A DNA stretch of 64,000 nt from Candidatus Spongiisociaceae bacterium (GTDB taxonomy: Bacteria > Actinomycetota > Acidimicrobiia > Spongiisociales > Spongiisociaceae), in the NCBI GenBank assembly GCA_965202665.1, contig OZ241841.1, forward strand, positions 2,272,001 to 2,336,000, given 5' to 3'. This document shows, piece by piece, positions 36,936 through 47,891 of this stretch (the first letter of the stretch is position 1; each line of letters opens with the position of its first letter). Position numbers and translations under genes: made by a program. Below the pieces are notes generated by a model. That model did not search any database, had not been told where the DNA came from, and saw only the letters and a list, made by a program, of their open reading frames with translations.

Positions 36936-37841
36936 TTACAGTAGATTCTTTATCTCTTGCAGTAGATCCGTGACCCGTTGAGCGACGGCTTCGTTGTCTG
37001 TTTCTGCGATGCGCCGGTACTTTTTACAGATCAGTTCTCTTATTTCGGCGGGGTCTCTTGATTCGGAGAAGACCCTGAAGAATTTTATCCAGTGCTCGGC
37101 TGGTATGCCCGCTATCAAGGACTCCAAGCTGGTCTGCAGGAAAAAATCCATTATTCCGGTTCGGGCCAAGCGGCCAAAGTTGCCACCAGGGTCAGACACT
37201 GGTTTGTCGGCTACCATGTCGGGTTTTGCCGGATATGGGCCTACATTTTCAATGGGCGCGACGATGGCGGAGTCGGATTTTGTCGTCCGTATTTCTTGCC
37301 ACCAATGGTTGCGATACTGAGCGGCGTATCGAACTGACTCCACCCACGGTACGGCAACCACCGGCTTACCCGACAGTACATTGGACAGGTACCAGGGGAT
37401 GACCGCGATCAGGTCATGCTCAGCGCAGGCGGATGGGGTGGTGGTCAATCTTAGGCTGGGCTCGCCTTCCTTGGACAGCAGGTACCAGCCTTTTAGTTCA
37501 ATGCCAAGGGCGATGGTTTTGGAGTCATTGTTACGAGCAACTAGTCGAACATCCGGGAAGGTCTGCGCTTGGCGCTCGAATACGTAAGTCGACCATTCAC
37601 CGTTGGGATCCCACACAGATCGCATGTTGTTGAGGGTTTTAACCACCTGTATCTCTATGGCGGCGGCCAGAACGGTATTGAGAGAGAACAAATCGGTGGC
37701 CTGAATTCCGGCAATGTGGGTATCAGATTCAAAATAGCCCGGCAACGAACGCAATGCATCGGCTATTCTTTGCCGCAACGCCGTTTTCGGGTCGGCGGCG
37801 GCCAGTACCGGCGGTACCGGAGGGCGGCGGGACGCTGTCAT
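36936..37841 (-). CDS. Putative type II restriction endonuclease (PD-(D/E)xK)
   Basis: FPDVRL...GIELKGW motif; ATGA overlap with the methyltransferase stop; AT-richer than flanks. Confidence 0.7.
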   Translation of the reverse strand: MTASRRPPVPPVLAAADPKTALRQRIADALRSLPGYFESDTHIAGIQATDLFSLNTVLAAAIEIQVVKTLNNMRSVWDPNGEWSTYVFERQAQTFPDVRLVARNNDSKTIALGIELKGWYLLSKEGEPSLRLTTTPSACAEHDLIAVIPWYLSNVLSGKPVVAVPWVESVRYAAQYRNHWWQEIRTTKSDSAIVAPIENVGPYPAKPDMVADKPVSDPGGNFGRLARTGIMDFFLQTSLESLIAGIPAEHWIKFFRVFSESRDPAEIRELICKKYRRIAETDNEAVAQRVTDLLQEIKNLL

Positions 37842-38920
37842 CTTGGATTGGAGGCTTGTATCAGTCGTTCTTCGGCGATGTCGGCGAAGGCCGTCACTTT
37901 TTCCGCGGCGTATGCCCGGCGTTTGAGTTCTACGGCGGCCGCCGACCCGGTGCATAGGCCGCCGAAGGGTTCCCAGATGACATCGCCCGCATCGGTGCAG
38001 GCCCTTATTATCCGTCGCATAAGAGCCAGGGGTTTCTGGTTGAGATGGGCGGCGGCGTTGCGCCCCGGATTGTGGACGCGGGGCGCGGAACGCAGACCGT
38101 TGCCCCGGTAACGTTCCTTGCCGTTGACCGGTGGATGACTCCACACATTGGTGATCCCGTGCTCGAAATTCCATTTGTATCTGAGTTTGCGCCAATCAGC
38201 GGCGGATGGCGGCCTCTCGCCGTCGAGGGAGAAGTAGGGGCGGTTGGTCGGGCGGCCGTGCTGGTTGGCGTAGCGCGCCATCTTCTCCAACATTTCCGGC
38301 GGCGGGAAATACCAATGCCGGTCACAGGTCAGATATTTACGGGTGGCGGCGTTGCGCACCCCGCATGCCTCATTGGCCAGGTTGAGCGGCAGGCCGGATC
38401 TCCGCCATTCGTGCCTCAACCACTCTTGCGCGGGCAACAGACCCCGACCGGTCGGCAGTTCCAGTTTGCGGGAGTAAAGCACGCACACCTCTGTAACGAC
38501 CGGAAACCGGCGCAGGGTTCGGCCATTGGAGTTGCCGGCCACATGGCCCAACCCTTTGTCCCAGACGATGGTTTGCTCATAAATCCATCCCAGTTCCGCC
38601 AATAGGGGGTGCATGGAAGCCCATCCCCGTTCCGTGTTCCAGAACCACAATGCGGTGGAGGGAAGGGCGCGCGCGGACCAGGCTCGCGCGTGTCCGGCGT
38701 ACCATTGGGGCAGAAGGCCGACTTCCAACGGATCTCCGGGGAATCCCCCCAATCCATAGGCGCCGTCGGATATGATGGCGTTGGGGCGGGGCCAGCCGGG
38801 ATAGGCGTCCAATGCATCGCCCCGGTACAGCGAAAAACGGGCGCTGGCGGGGGACGGCTGAGCCGGGTCGCCCTCCGACAGGAGAGTGCCCGAAGTGGGA
38901 TTACAAGTATGTAGTTTCAT
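37838..38920 (-). CDS. N4-C/N6-A DNA methyltransferase, beta-class motif order
   Basis: SDGAY (motif IV-like), IVWDK, HLNQKP, WEPFGG (motif I); SD GGAG before ATG 38920. Confidence 0.88.
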   Translation of the reverse strand: MKLHTCNPTSGTLLSEGDPAQPSPASARFSLYRGDALDAYPGWPRPNAIISDGAYGLGGFPGDPLEVGLLPQWYAGHARAWSARALPSTALWFWNTERGWASMHPLLAELGWIYEQTIVWDKGLGHVAGNSNGRTLRRFPVVTEVCVLYSRKLELPTGRGLLPAQEWLRHEWRRSGLPLNLANEACGVRNAATRKYLTCDRHWYFPPPEMLEKMARYANQHGRPTNRPYFSLDGERPPSAADWRKLRYKWNFEHGITNVWSHPPVNGKERYRGNGLRSAPRVHNPGRNAAAHLNQKPLALMRRIIRACTDAGDVIWEPFGGLCTGSAAAVELKRRAYAAEKVTAFADIAEERLIQASNPR

Positions 38921-39004
38921 AGCAGTCTCCATCATAGCCGCTTTTGATTCATTAGTAGCGGGCGGGTGGGACAAACTGCGGCCGGGGTTTACCCCCGGGT
39001 GGGG

Positions 39005-43271: not shown

Positions 43272-43308
43272 ATTCACCCTTTGAATGATTATCATTCAAA
43301 GGGTGAAT
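43272..43308. promoter_or_regulatory. Perfect 18-1-18 inverted repeat overlapping the -10 element and start of the DUF4143 ATPase gene; putative operator
   Basis: ATTCACCCTTTGAATGAT-T-ATCATTCAAAGGGTGAAT. Confidence 0.75.
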
Positions 43309-44523
43309 GATAAAGCACTGCCTCGGTTGGTGGTTCCCAGTCTGGTGGAAAGGCTGGGGGTGATGCCGGCGGTGGTGGTCACCGGCGCCCGCCAGACGGG
43401 TAAAAGCACCCTGGTGCAGGAACTGATCCCCGGCCGTCGACGCTTCTTCTCGCTGGACGACCTGGACGCCCTCGATTTGGCTCGCCGCAACCCCGGGGAA
43501 CTTCTGGCGGGCGTCGGGCCGGTCACCATCGACGAAGTGCAGAAGGCCCCCGACCTGTTGCAGGAGGTCAAGCGGGCCGTGGATCAGGACCTGCGTCCGG
43601 GGCGGTTTCTGCTCACCGGCTCCGCCAACCTGTTGCTGATGGGCCAAATTTCGGAGTCGTTGGCGGGCCGGGCCAGCTACCTGACTTTGTGGCCGATGAC
43701 CCACCGTGAGCAACAGGGCGCCGGCCGGGGCGGCATCTGGGAGGAGTTGTTGCAATCCGACAGCGAAGATTGGCCGGATTTGCTGGCCGCCGGGCCTGAT
43801 GAGCCGCAGGACTGGCGGCAGTTGGCCCGCCGGGGCGGATTCCCCCATCCCGCCCTGCGCCTGGGCGCCGCCTCGGAGCAGGACATCTGGTTCGACGGCT
43901 ATGTGCGAACCTACCTGGAGCGGGACCTGTCCGATATTTCATCCGTCGCCGCTCTGCACGACTTCCGGCGTCTGATGCGGATGACCTGCCTGCGCATCGG
44001 CCAACTGGTCAATCAGACCGAACTGGGTCGGGACGCGGCCCTCTCCCAGCCCACCGTCCACCGCTACCTCAACCTACTGGAAACCTCCTATATGCTGGTG
44101 CGCGTCCCCGCCTACACCGTCAACCGCACCAAGCGGCTGATCAAGTCCCCCAAGTTGTACTGGGGGGACACCGGATTGGCGTTGTTTTTAGCCGGGGGGC
44201 AACCCCAGGGGGCGCACTTGGAGAACATTGTGCTGAACAGTTTGCTGGCCTGGCGGGACGCCCGTCCCGGACCCGTGGATATTTTCCACTGGCGCACCGC
44301 GTCCGGCGAAGAAGTGGATTTCGTGATCGAGGCGGGCAATGACCTGTTGCCGGTGGAAGTGAAATCCTCCGCCCGGCCCCGGTTGCGGGATGGGGAGCGC
44401 ATCAGAGCCTTCCGTTCCGAATACGGGGAGCAGGCTCGGGCCGGGCTGGTGCTACACGACGGCCGAGAGGTGAAATGGCTGACGCCCAACGTGCTAGCCG
44501 CCCCCTGGTGGAAGGTGCTATAA
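43303..44523 (+). CDS. AAA_14 ATPase with DUF4143 (wHTH plus PD-(D/E)xK-like C-terminus)
   Basis: GARQTGKST, IDEVQ, LTGS, GGFP, KSPKLYWGDTG, EVDF...VEVK. Confidence 0.93.
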   Translation: MNDKALPRLVVPSLVERLGVMPAVVVTGARQTGKSTLVQELIPGRRRFFSLDDLDALDLARRNPGELLAGVGPVTIDEVQKAPDLLQEVKRAVDQDLRPGRFLLTGSANLLLMGQISESLAGRASYLTLWPMTHREQQGAGRGGIWEELLQSDSEDWPDLLAAGPDEPQDWRQLARRGGFPHPALRLGAASEQDIWFDGYVRTYLERDLSDISSVAALHDFRRLMRMTCLRIGQLVNQTELGRDAALSQPTVHRYLNLLETSYMLVRVPAYTVNRTKRLIKSPKLYWGDTGLALFLAGGQPQGAHLENIVLNSLLAWRDARPGPVDIFHWRTASGEEVDFVIEAGNDLLPVEVKSSARPRLRDGERIRAFRSEYGEQARAGLVLHDGREVKWLTPNVLAAPWWKVL

Positions 44524-44823
44524 TCCGGCTTTAGACGAACAGTTCACTTTGGAAAGCGTCAGCGGCGCGAAACCCCATCTGACCAGGCGATTTGATAACT
44601 TGCAAAACTTACAGTAAATTTAGTAAATCATGTGCATTTGAGTCAGAGGTGAAATGGTTGACGCCCAATGTGCTAGCCGCCCCCTGGTGGAAGGTGCTAT
44701 ATCCAGCTTTAGGCGAGGGGTTCGCTTTGGAAGCGTCAGCGACACGAAAACCCTCTTTGACCAGGCGATTTGACAACTTGCTAAACTTACAGTAAATTTA
44801 GTAAATAATGTTACATTTGAGTC
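44466..44823. repeat. 179-bp imperfect tandem duplication (44466-44644 / 44645-44823)
   Basis: Both copies carry EVKWLTPNVLAAPWWKVL coding sequence, the intergenic region and the promoter; AGAGG recurs at 44466, 44645 and 44824. Confidence 0.92.
44770..44804 (+). promoter_or_regulatory. Sigma70-type promoter with overlapping imperfect palindrome (putative operator)
   Basis: TTGACA(44770)-N17-TAAATT(44793); TTGCTAAACTTAC-A-GTAAATTTAGTAA, 11/13 complementary. Confidence 0.7.
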
Positions 44824-45815
44824 AGAGGCCGTTGACCGGTTCCAAAGCCGATGGAAGGCTGTTCGTTGGCCGAGACGCTGAACTCCGTCGCCTGGAACGA
44901 GCCGCCCAACTGGACTTCAACGTGTTGGCCTTGGGCGAACGCGGCATCGGGCTGACGTCTCTGATACGTCAGCATCAACGGCGAATGGAGGAAGCGGGCC
45001 GCCCTTGCTTCTACCTGAGCGGTACCAAGATAAAAAGTTCCGAGCAGGTGTTTGAGGCGATACAGACACGCGGCATGGGCCGTGTCGATCCTTTTTCTCC
45101 GATGCGGAGAGTGTTGGGTTTTACCCAACCGGATTCCCCATTCCATGAACTGATTCAGAAGATTAACCGGGAAGCGGACAATGTGCCCTTGGTGTTTCTG
45201 GATGACATGCATGACCCAAAGTTGACGCACCAGATGTTCGGGCGTTACCGGGATGAAATATGGGGGTTGTCCTGTCGCTGGGTGGTGTGCGGTCTCACTC
45301 GTCATCGCTCCGAATATTTGACCTCGCCTGCCGATGCTTTTTTTGAGACGGAGATCGCCATCGGAACTATGGATGATTCCGTTGCGGGCGACCTGTTGGA
45401 GGCGCGGTTGGCGACGGCCAGAGGCGAGGATGCCCGGTCGGTGGAACTGATCCGCTCCAATTACGAACAAATCATCAGAGAGGGCGGAGGCAATCCCCGG
45501 CAGATTTTGGCTTCGGCGCGAGACACACTCCTCCGCGATGTTGATGAAAGTGCCAGTTTGGAGCGTCTCCGACAGGAGGCGGCGAAGTTGGGCGAAGCAG
45601 AAGGCCGCGTTTGGCAATATCTACTAACTCACGGCCCGGCCAGTGCCTCCGACGAGGAACTTCTGGAAAACTACGGGATAACCCGCGCCCGCGCCGCCCA
45701 AGTACTCGGACGTCTCGAAGAAGCCGGATTGGTAGTGGTTCATTACGAGAAGCAAGGAGTGGGCCGCCCTCGCAAGTTCTACCGGGCGGGTATCCCTCAC
45801 CAGGAGGTCGCATGA
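44808..45815 (+). CDS. STAND/AAA-like P-loop protein with degenerate Walker A and C-terminal winged HTH
   Basis: FVGRDAEL, GERGIGLTS (Lys replaced by Leu), VFLDD, GGNPR, GITRARAAQVLGRLEEAGLV...GRPRKFY. Confidence 0.85.
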   Translation: MLHLSQRPLTGSKADGRLFVGRDAELRRLERAAQLDFNVLALGERGIGLTSLIRQHQRRMEEAGRPCFYLSGTKIKSSEQVFEAIQTRGMGRVDPFSPMRRVLGFTQPDSPFHELIQKINREADNVPLVFLDDMHDPKLTHQMFGRYRDEIWGLSCRWVVCGLTRHRSEYLTSPADAFFETEIAIGTMDDSVAGDLLEARLATARGEDARSVELIRSNYEQIIREGGGNPRQILASARDTLLRDVDESASLERLRQEAAKLGEAEGRVWQYLLTHGPASASDEELLENYGITRARAAQVLGRLEEAGLVVVHYEKQGVGRPRKFYRAGIPHQEVA

Positions 45816-46864
45816 GTCTAGAATTGTTGCGACGGCTTCAAGAAGAGCGCGCTTTTGACTCTTCCCCGCTTCGTCATGATTTGGGTGTATATCATGTTCC
45901 CTTCAGCGAGCTGGGTTCAATCAGGCCGCTGGAGCAGACACTGTATGATGCGGCGAAACGGGCGGAACGCCTGATGGTTATCGGTTGCTCTGGTTCGGGT
46001 AAGTCGAGCCTCATTGAGCACACGCTGGGACCGCTCGCCCAAGGGGTGGCTCCCATCCATATTCCTGTTTTTGCGGAGTCGGCTAATATTGTTACCAATG
46101 TGCAAGCAGTGGCTGGGATGATAATCCAGCAACTAGTGCAACATGCAGGGATGTCCGAAGCCGAACGTAAGCACGCTCTGCAGTGGGCATCCTCACAACG
46201 CCCCTTAGATTATAGGGCTAGTATAACTAGTTTTAAGGCAGATGCTTCTTGGACGGGTGCAGGGTTGGGAGCTGAAATCAAAAGGCAGGCTCCTAGCAAC
46301 ATGACTCTGCCCAACACTGCTTCGGGCACATTAGAAATAGTTGATCATTTGCTAAATGCAATAAAGGAAGATAAGTTGATGCCGGTGCTGGTGTTTGATG
46401 ATACTGACAGATGGTTTCGCGAAATAGAATCTGAAAATACCGAATATTATGATATAGCGATCAGATTTTTTGGTTCGGTCCTCACAGAGATACGTCAACT
46501 TAGCACAGGACTTGTTTTGGCCGTTCATCCCCGCTACCTAGAGAACGAACAACTCAACGATCACATAGGCAACACTATAGAGAGCCCGATTGATATTCCT
46601 TTGTTAACTTCCGTTAGCGCATTAGGTAAAGTGCTTTATTCGCGCGTCGTGAAACACTCCTCTCCTACCGGTACTGATAATGTGCCGTCACTAGACGAAG
46701 TTCTGTCGCCGGAGGCACTGGATAGGCTGTACGATCTGTACCAGTGCTATTTTTCCGGATCATTAAGGGAAGCAATTCGCAAAGTTCACATAGCCTTAAC
46801 CGATGCCTGCAATGGTGGATTTGAGGTTATCACGCCGGAGCTGATTACTCAGGCCGTTTGGTAA
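45812..46864 (+). CDS. P-loop (AAA/STAND-like) ATPase
   Basis: GCSGSGKSS, VLVFDDTD, GSLR; SD GGAGG and ATGA overlap with the upstream gene. Confidence 0.85.
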   Translation: MSLELLRRLQEERAFDSSPLRHDLGVYHVPFSELGSIRPLEQTLYDAAKRAERLMVIGCSGSGKSSLIEHTLGPLAQGVAPIHIPVFAESANIVTNVQAVAGMIIQQLVQHAGMSEAERKHALQWASSQRPLDYRASITSFKADASWTGAGLGAEIKRQAPSNMTLPNTASGTLEIVDHLLNAIKEDKLMPVLVFDDTDRWFREIESENTEYYDIAIRFFGSVLTEIRQLSTGLVLAVHPRYLENEQLNDHIGNTIESPIDIPLLTSVSALGKVLYSRVVKHSSPTGTDNVPSLDEVLSPEALDRLYDLYQCYFSGSLREAIRKVHIALTDACNGGFEVITPELITQAVW

Positions 46865-46877
46865 CCCGGGGCGGGAC

Positions 46878-47891
46878 TTAGATGGGTAAGGGGGTTTGGG
46901 TGGGGGATGCGGGGGCGGGGGGTGGGGAGGGTTGGGGGGTTTTGCGGGGGCGGGGGCCGAAGTGTTTTCTTATTATGCCGTTTACCATTATTCCCAGCCG
47001 TTTGCCGGCGGGGCGGGGGGCGTAGGCACCTTTGCGGTAGAAGCGGTGATAGCGGTGCAACAGGTCCGGGTATTTCTCGCCCACCCACTCGTAATAGTGT
47101 TGCTTCAGCGGACCCCGCAGGTGCAGGTAGGAACCGGTGATGAAGCGGGCCCCCGCCTCCGCCGCCCCGGCCACCACCTCCTCGATCTGTTCCGGCCGGT
47201 CGGACAGGCCGGGCAGGATGGGCATCATCAACACCCCGGACGGCACCCCCGCTTCGTTTAGGCGGGCCACCGCGTCCAGCCGTTTGCGGGGATGGGCGGT
47301 GCCCGGTTCGGAAGCGGCCCACACCTCCCGGTCCAGTGTGGGAACGGACAGGTTGATGGTCACTTCGGTGCGGGAAGCCGCCTCCCGCAACAAATCCAAA
47401 TCCCGCAACACCAGGGGCGATTTGGTGAGAACGGAAAACGGGTTGCCCCGCTCCGTCAACGTTTCCACGATCCGCCGGGTCAGTTTGTATTTGCCCTCGG
47501 CCGGCTGATAAGGGTCGGTGTTGGTGCCCATCGCAATCGGATGCCCCGGCCAGCGGCGGGGTTCGGTTTCCCGCCGGATCAGCTCCGGCGCGTTGATTTT
47601 CACCACGATCCGGCTGTCAAAGTCTTTGCCTATGCCCATCCCCAAAAAGTCGTGGGTGGGACGGGCGAAGCAGTAGGTGCAGGCGTGGCTGCACCCCCGG
47701 TAGGCGTTGATGGTGTATCCGAAAGGAAACATGCCGTTGTCGGGAACCCGGTTGATCAGGGTTTTGGCCTCCACATGCAGAAATTCCAGACCCCGGTAGG
47801 CGCCCCGCCCGATGTGACGCTCCACCGCCTGCTCAAACAAAGCGGGCGGGTCTTCCCTCCGGTCGGCGATGGGCCAACGAATTTCGCTCAT
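46878..47891 (-). CDS. Rv2578c-family radical SAM protein (spore photoproduct lyase-like)
   Basis: NAYRGCSHACTYCFAR, GTNTDPYQPAE, LTKS, PILPGL. Confidence 0.93.
   Translation of the reverse strand: MSEIRWPIADRREDPPALFEQAVERHIGRGAYRGLEFLHVEAKTLINRVPDNGMFPFGYTINAYRGCSHACTYCFARPTHDFLGMGIGKDFDSRIVVKINAPELIRRETEPRRWPGHPIAMGTNTDPYQPAEGKYKLTRRIVETLTERGNPFSVLTKSPLVLRDLDLLREAASRTEVTINLSVPTLDREVWAASEPGTAHPRKRLDAVARLNEAGVPSGVLMMPILPGLSDRPEQIEEVVAGAAEAGARFITGSYLHLRGPLKQHYYEWVGEKYPDLLHRYHRFYRKGAYAPRPAGKRLGIMVNGIIRKHFGPRPRKTPQPSPPPAPASPTQTPLPI

Follow-up and report, generated by a model that had tools for sequence, protein, structure and literature searches.

Two overlapping genes in a Candidatus Spongiisociaceae bacterium (assembly GCA_965202665.1, contig OZ241841.1) raise the question of what a cell does with a pair of ATPases, one with degenerate nucleotide-binding motifs and a domain of the winged helix-turn-helix type (wHTH), the other with intact motifs and no visible effector. 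The two genes, referred to as gene 1 and gene 2, lie in a stretch of 64,000 nucleotides (positions 2,272,001 to 2,336,000 of the forward strand), called the window, within which all coordinates are numbered. A first-pass annotation made from the letters alone had proposed an unnamed pair of ATPases, one degenerate and one intact, that are translationally coupled and have a promoter and operator of their own. This description held when homologous loci were compared, and it became clear that the two genes form a genuine and conserved ATPase pair, without a name and probably autoregulated. The elements of the pair are the following.

44808..45815, plus strand: gene 1, 335 residues, a degenerate Orc1/Cdc6/STAND-like ATPase with a C-terminal wHTH
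45588..45788, plus strand: wHTH domain of gene 1, residues 261-327, TrmB/ArsR-like (Pfam TrmB, E 3.3e-7)
45802..45815, plus strand: coupling element, AGGAGG and an ATGA stop-start overlap, which joins gene 2 to gene 1
45812..46864, plus strand: gene 2, 350 residues, an intact paralogous AAA+/STAND-like ATPase without wHTH or effector
44770..44798, plus strand: sigma-70-type promoter, TTGACA-17-TAAATT, in a position suited to a leaderless transcript that begins at the gene-1 ATG or immediately before it
44777..44805, no strand assigned: predicted 29-bp palindromic operator with four subsites, covering the spacer, the -10 box and the start

Gene 1 reads GERGIGLTS at its Walker A motif, with leucine replacing lysine at residue 49 (codon CTG, 44952-44954). 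The leucine is not a sequencing error, because an independent run spanning 44672-46841 with 2 differences has none on this codon among those listed (230 lesser difference rows lie beyond them), and because lysine is missing from all 66 of 66 homologues with at least 42% identity, which carry Val, Leu, Ser, Ile, Thr, Met or Ala instead. The wHTH at the C-terminus of gene 1 scores above the Pfam cut-off. The overlap (45812-45815) and the Shine-Dalgarno (SD) sequence (45802-45807) were both found, and gene 2 has an intact Walker A (GCSGSGKSS) and Walker B (VFDDTD) and no extra domain, as first described. The AT-rich character of the block was confirmed (26/60 G+C at 46381-46440), with a G+C content of 57.5% in gene 1, 48.5% in gene 2 and 64.1% in the genome; low G+C was discarded as a family trait of gene 2, whose G+C at third codon positions falls below that of gene 1 in only 19/75 loci.

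The association of the two genes was followed through genome loci, a sample of the phylum and a set of relatives, which come from one collection and overlap. A search with gene 1 gave 79 genome loci, and in 73 of them it is followed directly by gene 2 or what is left of gene 2. Gene 1 is broken in two of the 79 (L027, where both genes are broken, and L074, where gene 1 alone is), and the other 77 hold a whole gene 2 in 57 cases, a broken one in 12 (L004 and L034 being counted here), none in 6 and one cut by a contig end in 2. The first-pass annotation had made its case depend on gene 1 seldom occurring without gene 2; this expectation stood at the 73 loci and failed at the 6 of 79 from which any gene 2 is missing. 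From the opposite side, 35 metagenome loci were found through gene 2; the upstream sequence is too short in 15 of them, and of the remaining 20, 19 contain gene 1 or pieces of it and one is a fragment of gene 2. The stop of gene 1 and the start of gene 2 overlap in 74 of 87 loci, 58 of them in the ATGA form. Of 401 phylum genomes, 8 carry gene 1 and the same 8 carry gene 2; the genes adjoin in 7 of these and lie on two contigs in the remaining one (G196 and G267, among these carriers, are flagged unpublished), and among 151 relatives gene 1 is present in 11 and gene 2 in 10. The distribution is thus patchy: about 2% of the genomes sampled from the phylum carry the pair, and gene 1 is in 7% of the relatives. 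Named hosts are almost all Actinomycetota, with six sponge-type Acidobacteriota nested inside, and the family amounts to 507 clusters at 50% identity (E up to 1e-30).

The pair sits at many unrelated sites overall, and no third gene family is conserved beside it in the genome-locus neighbourhoods. Of 72 loci, 35 have the downstream gene in the same orientation as the pair and 37 in the opposite one (it is convergent in the window), so the cassette drives no cargo. In 18 of 75 loci where gene 1 is intact, the second gene has been lost or is broken; among the relatives, an intact gene 1 without an intact gene 2 was seen in 4 places and the converse in 0. In Ca. Multivorans (L010-L013), gene 2 carries internal deletions of differing size in 3 of 4 genomes.

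The gene-1 ATPase domain is degenerate across its family, to an extent that differs between clades. Both motifs could be aligned in 312 homologues, of which 174 have lysine at the Walker A site, 56 arginine and 82 other residues. Since 174 of these proteins keep the lysine, the change to leucine is a trait of one clade, and the earlier idea that the substitution is conserved applies to the closer homologues and not to the family as a whole, whose distant members mostly keep the lysine. Lysine-less sequences from loci (n = 20, at least 42% identity) form one branch (support 94, unstarred). Catalytic decay in the wider sense is upheld, because an acidic second Walker B residue is found in 160 of the 312 and only 75 combine it with the lysine. 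Judged from these motifs, the gene-1 family is catalytically degenerate and its Walker A lysine site unconstrained. The glycines of the P-loop are kept at 94-100%, and the ATPase part shows a ratio of nonsynonymous to synonymous substitution rates (dN/dS) of 0.13-0.30 in 15 pairs, indicating purifying selection. The most conserved residues are not the P-loop lysine; they lie in the motifs F-G-x-x-R-D-x-x-W and P-A-D-x-F-F. Both the helix that follows Walker B and the PADAFF segment vary hardly at all, with an arginine in 316/316 homologues; the two motifs doubled as retrieval patterns for the genome loci, and most of the 316 came from protein searches without that requirement. Conservation of R22 (93%), E25 (82%) and a proline of the lid (98%) agrees with the motifs of MNS-clade STAND proteins, an N-terminal hhGRExE-like motif and a GxP in the helical domain. 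The helix and wing residues of the wHTH are conserved at 92-99% in the 316 homologues. Three gene-1 homologues, P0285, P0271 and P0300, bear C-terminal additions (an EAL domain, DUF2188 and a weak DUF6416), which may be read-through artefacts.

The partner has kept its catalytic motifs. The gene-2 family has the Walker A lysine in 177/177 sequences and the Walker B DD in 174/179, and the lysine is present in all 58 of 58 sequences found through gene 1, and hence free of motif bias. The gene-1 and gene-2 families are homologous (hhalign 96.6%, E 6.6e-10), so a duplication likely gave rise to the pair. Neither protein is spanned full-length by any Pfam, NCBIfam or PADLOC family; in PADLOC-DB 2.0 gene 1 reaches a best E value of 0.0014 and gene 2 one of 0.019, and 82 gene-2 members give only weak matches (best E 1.3e-6). 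Sequence searches of solved structures returned P-loop-level matches only, and public annotations call both proteins 'hypothetical', 'helix-turn-helix', 'ATPase AAA' or 'ATP-binding protein'. Two apparent fusions of gene 1 to gene 2, P0319 and P0354, have lost the wHTH end and contain an off-frame-looking run; they were deemed frameshift artefacts and not used, and a search for longer gene-2 proteins returned only P0354, as weak evidence.

Structure models place both proteins closest to Cdc6/Orc1. The gene-1 model (predicted local distance difference test score, pLDDT, 85.9) suggests an AAA+ core, a helical lid and a C-terminal wHTH, laid out as in Orc1/Cdc6, with wHTH elements at H263-275, H283-289, H293-305, E309-314 and E322-327. 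Its best match is Cdc6/Orc1 (Z 16.1, root-mean-square deviation, rmsd, 3.0, 208 aligned residues). The gene-2 model (pLDDT 86.3) ends in the helical lid, without a wHTH, and has a flexible insert at residues 133-161. It also matches Cdc6/Orc1 best (Z 17.3, rmsd 3.4, 247 aligned), tied with Drosophila Cdc6 (Z 16.9), and Foldseek agrees for both proteins. These matches occur at 12-19% identity. Just before strand 5, where the position of the arginine finger expected in both proteins of an nSTAND2 two-gene system was placed by eye, neither family has an arginine conserved above 75%.

The region upstream of gene 1 carries the second conserved feature of the family. The operator has the consensus TWAC-N5-TTAC-W-GTAA-N5-GTWA, with subsites repeating every 9 bp. 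A palindrome with at least 10 of 14 paired positions is present in 69 of 91 loci, vs 7 of 91 upstream control windows and 1.7% of shuffles, and a TANNNT hexamer lies 16-5 nt before the gene-1 start in 79/91 loci vs 6/91 in the control window; no SD-like motif precedes gene 1 in any of the 91. In the window, the promoter and operator that had been noted earlier are both present, and the region has also undergone a 179-bp imperfect tandem duplication (44466-44649 / 44645-44828) that is absent from the first description. It copies the 3' end of the upstream gene, which encodes an AAA_14/DUF4143 protein, together with the promoter, operator and start of gene 1, leaving gene 1 with two promoters and two operators. 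The additional copy is listed here.

44466..44649, plus strand: first copy of the tandem duplication, which holds the 3' end of the DUF4143 gene, a further promoter and operator (44592-44627) and a shortened start of gene 1

A contig of another run, X5, has the single-copy form (joint 44629 to 44808), so the duplication is a strain-level event; a second X5 joint, which skips gene 2, was set aside as weak, with only 20 letters on one side. In Ca. Multivorans (L010-L013), a second operator copy lies about 70 nt upstream of gene 1, beyond the first.

The operator is confined to the pair. A matrix built from 47 distinct operators finds in the window's own genome only the duplicated sites, scoring 41.4 and 39.3 (the latter at 44777-44805), and an overlapping frame at 22.3; in the same regulon search the next score, 16.7, lies within the range of 20 column-permuted matrices. 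The exact operator stands beside gene 1 once in 5/5 carrier genomes and was found in 0/5 non-carriers. G015 has one extra site with one mismatch, and its second gene-1 copy is without a matching site. Because the operator occurs once per genome, the wHTH likely regulates its own operon only, and a nucleotide-gated transcriptional switch for other genes, as the first-pass annotation had envisaged, is disfavoured. Repressors bind sites over the -10 box and the start, which is where this operator lies, and from this position of the sequence elements gene 1 is likely the autorepressor of its operon. TAGC/TTGC operator variants accompany a glutamine in the recognition helix, and the loci with four TWGC-type subsites (6, one with GAGC) all have S-R-Q-R there; co-variation of operator and helix was rejected as evidence, since the tree, from an unfinished search, gives 1-2 independent pairs (p = 1), and is kept as a lead only.

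What, then, is the pair for? The fixed gene order, the coupling, the paralogy, the degenerate and intact motifs, the single operator per genome and the absence of a third gene are established. A regulator that controls its own operon only needs its output in the second gene. The regulator-first layout, the promoter repeat, the coupled intact partner, the patchy spread and the more frequent loss of the partner favour a reading in the manner of toxin-antitoxin or abortive-infection modules: an autorepressed, toxin-antitoxin-like ATPase pair in which gene 1 would be repressor and inhibitor and gene 2 the working arm. Drawn by analogy, this is the reading that we tentatively prefer, and it may well be correct while falling short of probable. 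The degenerate gene-1 protein would bind the promoter palindrome and likely repress the operon, four wHTH domains perhaps reading the four subsites with their 9-bp spacing. A further likely role of the gene-1 protein is to bind the intact gene-2 ATPase and hold it in check, where the helix after Walker B and the PADAFF segment may pack on the gene-2 nucleotide site. Upon stress or infection, gene 2 would be released and slow growth; once freed, it might oligomerise and burn ATP or coat DNA. Two gene-2 homologues, P0106 and P0123, are fused at the C-terminus to a CAP12/Pycsar TIR domain and a hydrophobic helix, maybe in one event, and these fusions fit an oligomerising conflict protein. A stronger form of the idea holds that one duplicated Orc1/Cdc6-like ATPase gave rise to a new class of toxin-antitoxin or abortive-infection system, with the dead copy as autorepressor and inhibitor and the live copy as a bare effector without nuclease or NADase; this form is possible and rather unlikely.

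Several described systems resemble the pair in part. The combination of an active and an inactive STAND protein is a known theme, and this family fails the defining features of nSTAND2 and of BrxB-BrxC. The nSTAND2 two-gene system is a mobile operon in which both proteins are STAND-like, one has eroded NTP-binding motifs and a hetero-multimer has been proposed (Kaur et al. 2021, PMC8195603). In that account, both proteins have a wHTH, the inactive one carries tetratricopeptide repeats (TPRs) and a HEPN or GT4 effector, and the first listed rows are gammaproteobacterial (PMC8195603). Compared with that description, our pair shares two adjacent STAND-like NTPase genes, one with eroded motifs, and differs in having its wHTH on the degenerate protein only, no TPRs or effector, and a conserved self-operator. 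No TPR, HEPN or GT4 domain was detected on gene 1 among 25/26 families in 67 members, nor in 9 long homologues, and the protein ends with the wHTH at 335 residues. Five family accessions are absent from 12/13 supplement files of PMC8195603.

In BREX, an inactive ATPase, BrxB (iSTAND), and an active one, BrxC, both ORC/Cdc6-like, share an operon; BrxB is described as fast-evolving and without a helical bundle or wHTH, and BREX as requiring PglX, PglZ and BrxA (PMC12839542). Gene 2 resembles BrxC/BrxD-type clusters by language-model features (0.95). The present pair differs in that its degenerate partner has the wHTH and that it stands alone, with no fixed linkage to pglX, pglZ or brxA. The likeness to archaeal and eukaryotic Orc1/Cdc6 (PDB 2qby, 2v1u, 7jgr) lies in the best structural matches of both proteins and in the joining of AAA+ and wHTH in gene 1, and the origin recognition complex (ORC) mixes active and inactive subunits, according to PMC8195603. 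Unlike Orc1/Cdc6, the pair is accessory and patchy, gene 2 has no wHTH, identity is low, and the DNA site is a single promoter site and not an origin. Intact Walker A and B motifs in the wHTH protein together with several origin boxes nearby, by which an Orc1/Cdc6 protein would be recognised, were not found for gene 1.

The closest regulatory analogue is AbiE (AbiEi-AbiEii), in which a wHTH protein autorepresses the bicistron through inverted repeats (PMC3985639). As in AbiE and other autoregulated toxin-antitoxin bicistrons so described, the regulator comes first, has a wHTH and is preceded by promoter inverted repeats, and the coupled second gene is catalytically intact. The features of type II/IV toxin-antitoxin loci that are present here are the translationally coupled, regulator-first bicistron and the promoter inverted repeat, which is conserved and unique. 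The pair has no sequence relation to these systems, its partners are paralogous ATPases, and toxicity of gene 2 and its neutralisation are proposed by analogy. The Npun2340/2341 family (MNS clade, STAND NTPases) is also said to consist of adjacent paralogous STAND ATPases. No description of the pair was found in the literature searched, and it may stand as an unnamed clade among the 589 STAND clades of PMC12803255 or in the 2004 STAND classification.

A number of observations weigh against a toxin-antitoxin-like or abortive-infection function. Most neighbours of the pair are housekeeping genes, and some lineages (some Acidimicrobiales, soil Actinomycetes) hold it at one chromosomal site. At 335 residues, gene 1 is large for an antitoxin, and 75 of the 312 gene-1 homologues still look catalytically complete. 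Profile searches found no known toxin domain in gene 2. The asymmetry of loss (18/75 vs 1/11, p 0.44) is non-significant once the route by which the loci were found is allowed for, and L074 and L101 combine a broken gene 1 with an intact gene 2. The pair occurs in 2 of 72,556 plasmid records, both of the same plasmid; gene 1 had no match in viral contigs and gene 2 none in phage records. Finally, PADLOC matched 21/147 immediate neighbours in comparison with 17/147 distal genes and 19/147 fixed-position genes (7 carrier genomes), and after removal of housekeeping cross-hits by hand 14, 11 and 9 (Fisher p 0.39-0.87). This test used rough gene calls, proteins cut to 500 residues and a neighbour set from which 14 near-duplicate loci, the window included, were left out; it is small, with control genomes rich in defence genes and a random set from 7 genomes only. 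An anti-phage role, which had been suggested at first, or residence in defence islands thus finds no more support in the neighbourhoods than in controls.

The same facts bear on the alternatives. In the best-surviving one, the pair would be a machine for signalling or remodelling, gated by nucleotide and benign in its output; gene 2 would act on a host protein or a metabolite not encoded nearby, and autorepression would only set the dose. It would account for the housekeeping neighbourhoods, the missing defence enrichment, the way in which some Acidimicrobiales and soil Actinomycetes keep the pair between the same genes, and the lack of an effector domain on gene 2; however, a module found at so low a prevalence and so often lost, with its operator at no other genes and no conserved partner gene, makes it unlikely.

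A quite improbable alternative is that gene 1, bound to the operator, nucleates a gene-2 ring or filament on DNA, comparable to TnsD-TnsC or ORC-Cdc6, the pair being a helper of DNA targeting or mobility, or a relic of one. The four subsites every 9 bp, the many unrelated sites of the pair and the fold of gene 2, for which TnsC and MuB (Z about 14.7) follow Cdc6/Orc1 in the ranking, are consistent with such an assembly. However, a common fold proves no function, one short site lying across the promoter is more in keeping with a repressor than with an origin, and no conserved transposase, integrase or helicase-loader gene stands beside the pair, with insertion sequence (IS) genes making up 2/147 neighbours.

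Single loci do lie in defence settings, within or next to BREX, DISARM and type I restriction operons. In L082 (5375-12602) and L084 the pair is located inside a BREX operon, between pglX and brxC/pglY and co-oriented; L053 stands directly before drmD, L023 after hsdR, and the pair is also seen beside a Cap17-like gene. On plasmid pFiD188 (L155:9287-14090) the pair, whose plasmid copy also bears the operator, stands directly behind a Phd-RelE pair and a RES gene accompanied by its upstream partner, and an Lsr2 gene is near. These BREX, drmD and hsdR positions and the two TIR fusions would agree with a regulatory or backup module of phage-defence operons that functions only together with adjoining systems of the BREX, DISARM or restriction kind. 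The rate of such loci, a small minority, is nevertheless equalled by controls (BREX genes are adjacent at one locus only, L082, among the 147 neighbours scanned), and half of the downstream genes, the window included, are convergent, which leaves this alternative a slim chance.

The weakest proposal, extremely improbable, joins the pair with the protein encoded upstream.

43272..44523, plus strand: AAA_14/DUF4143 gene with its own palindrome, PADLOC candidate PDC-S01, outside the pair

The gene itself (43285-44523) and its palindrome, perfect with 18-bp arms (43272-43308) over its start, are as first described, and its C-terminus gives weak matches to PD-(D/E)XK-type profiles. The suggested cooperation could appeal to the adjacency of the genes in the window and at the syntenic L009, and to a DUF4143 gene within 10 kb in 3 more of the 79 loci, but it was rejected: a DUF4143 gene adjoins gene 1 in 1/79 loci and not in the other 78, and that one, L009, has another gene order, with DUF4143 downstream of gene 1 and gene 2 missing (trpB2, two S-layer-homology genes, gene 1, DUF4143, radical SAM). 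Furthermore, the family has several copies per genome (at least 4 further paralogues in the window's own), appears in control gene sets and has a different palindrome. A diverged version of this palindrome is kept in L009, and three paralogues in the window's own genome are without any; the DUF4143 subfamily may possibly autoregulate through its own palindrome. In L007, trpB2 adjoins the radical SAM gene and the pair is about 4 kb off. This interval is variable, and two independent cassettes have come together in it. A G-rich low-complexity run at 46878-46960 lies between gene 2 and the convergent radical SAM gene, and L009 has one too. Elsewhere in the window (36936-38974, minus strand), the translations suggest a DNA methyltransferase-like gene followed by a restriction-endonuclease-like one, in a stretch of lower G+C.

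The preferred reading of the two genes as a self-repressed, toxin-antitoxin-like ATPase pair would set them apart from both groups that they recall. We know of no toxin-antitoxin pair built from two sister AAA+ ATPases, and the described active-inactive STAND pairs carry visible effectors, of which this family has none. The family is without a name or effector, and yet its dead ATPase domain is under purifying selection and its operator is sharply defined. The natural series from lysine-retaining to lysine-less P-loops offers material on how a pseudo-ATPase arises. Should gene 2 prove harmless, the value of the finding would fall to that of a well-mapped orphan regulator; with the cultured carriers Nakamurella lactea DSM 19367, whose pair is WP_029137171 and WP_029137170, and Rhodococcus sp. 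WS4, the role of a bare, self-repressed ATPase pair becomes testable.

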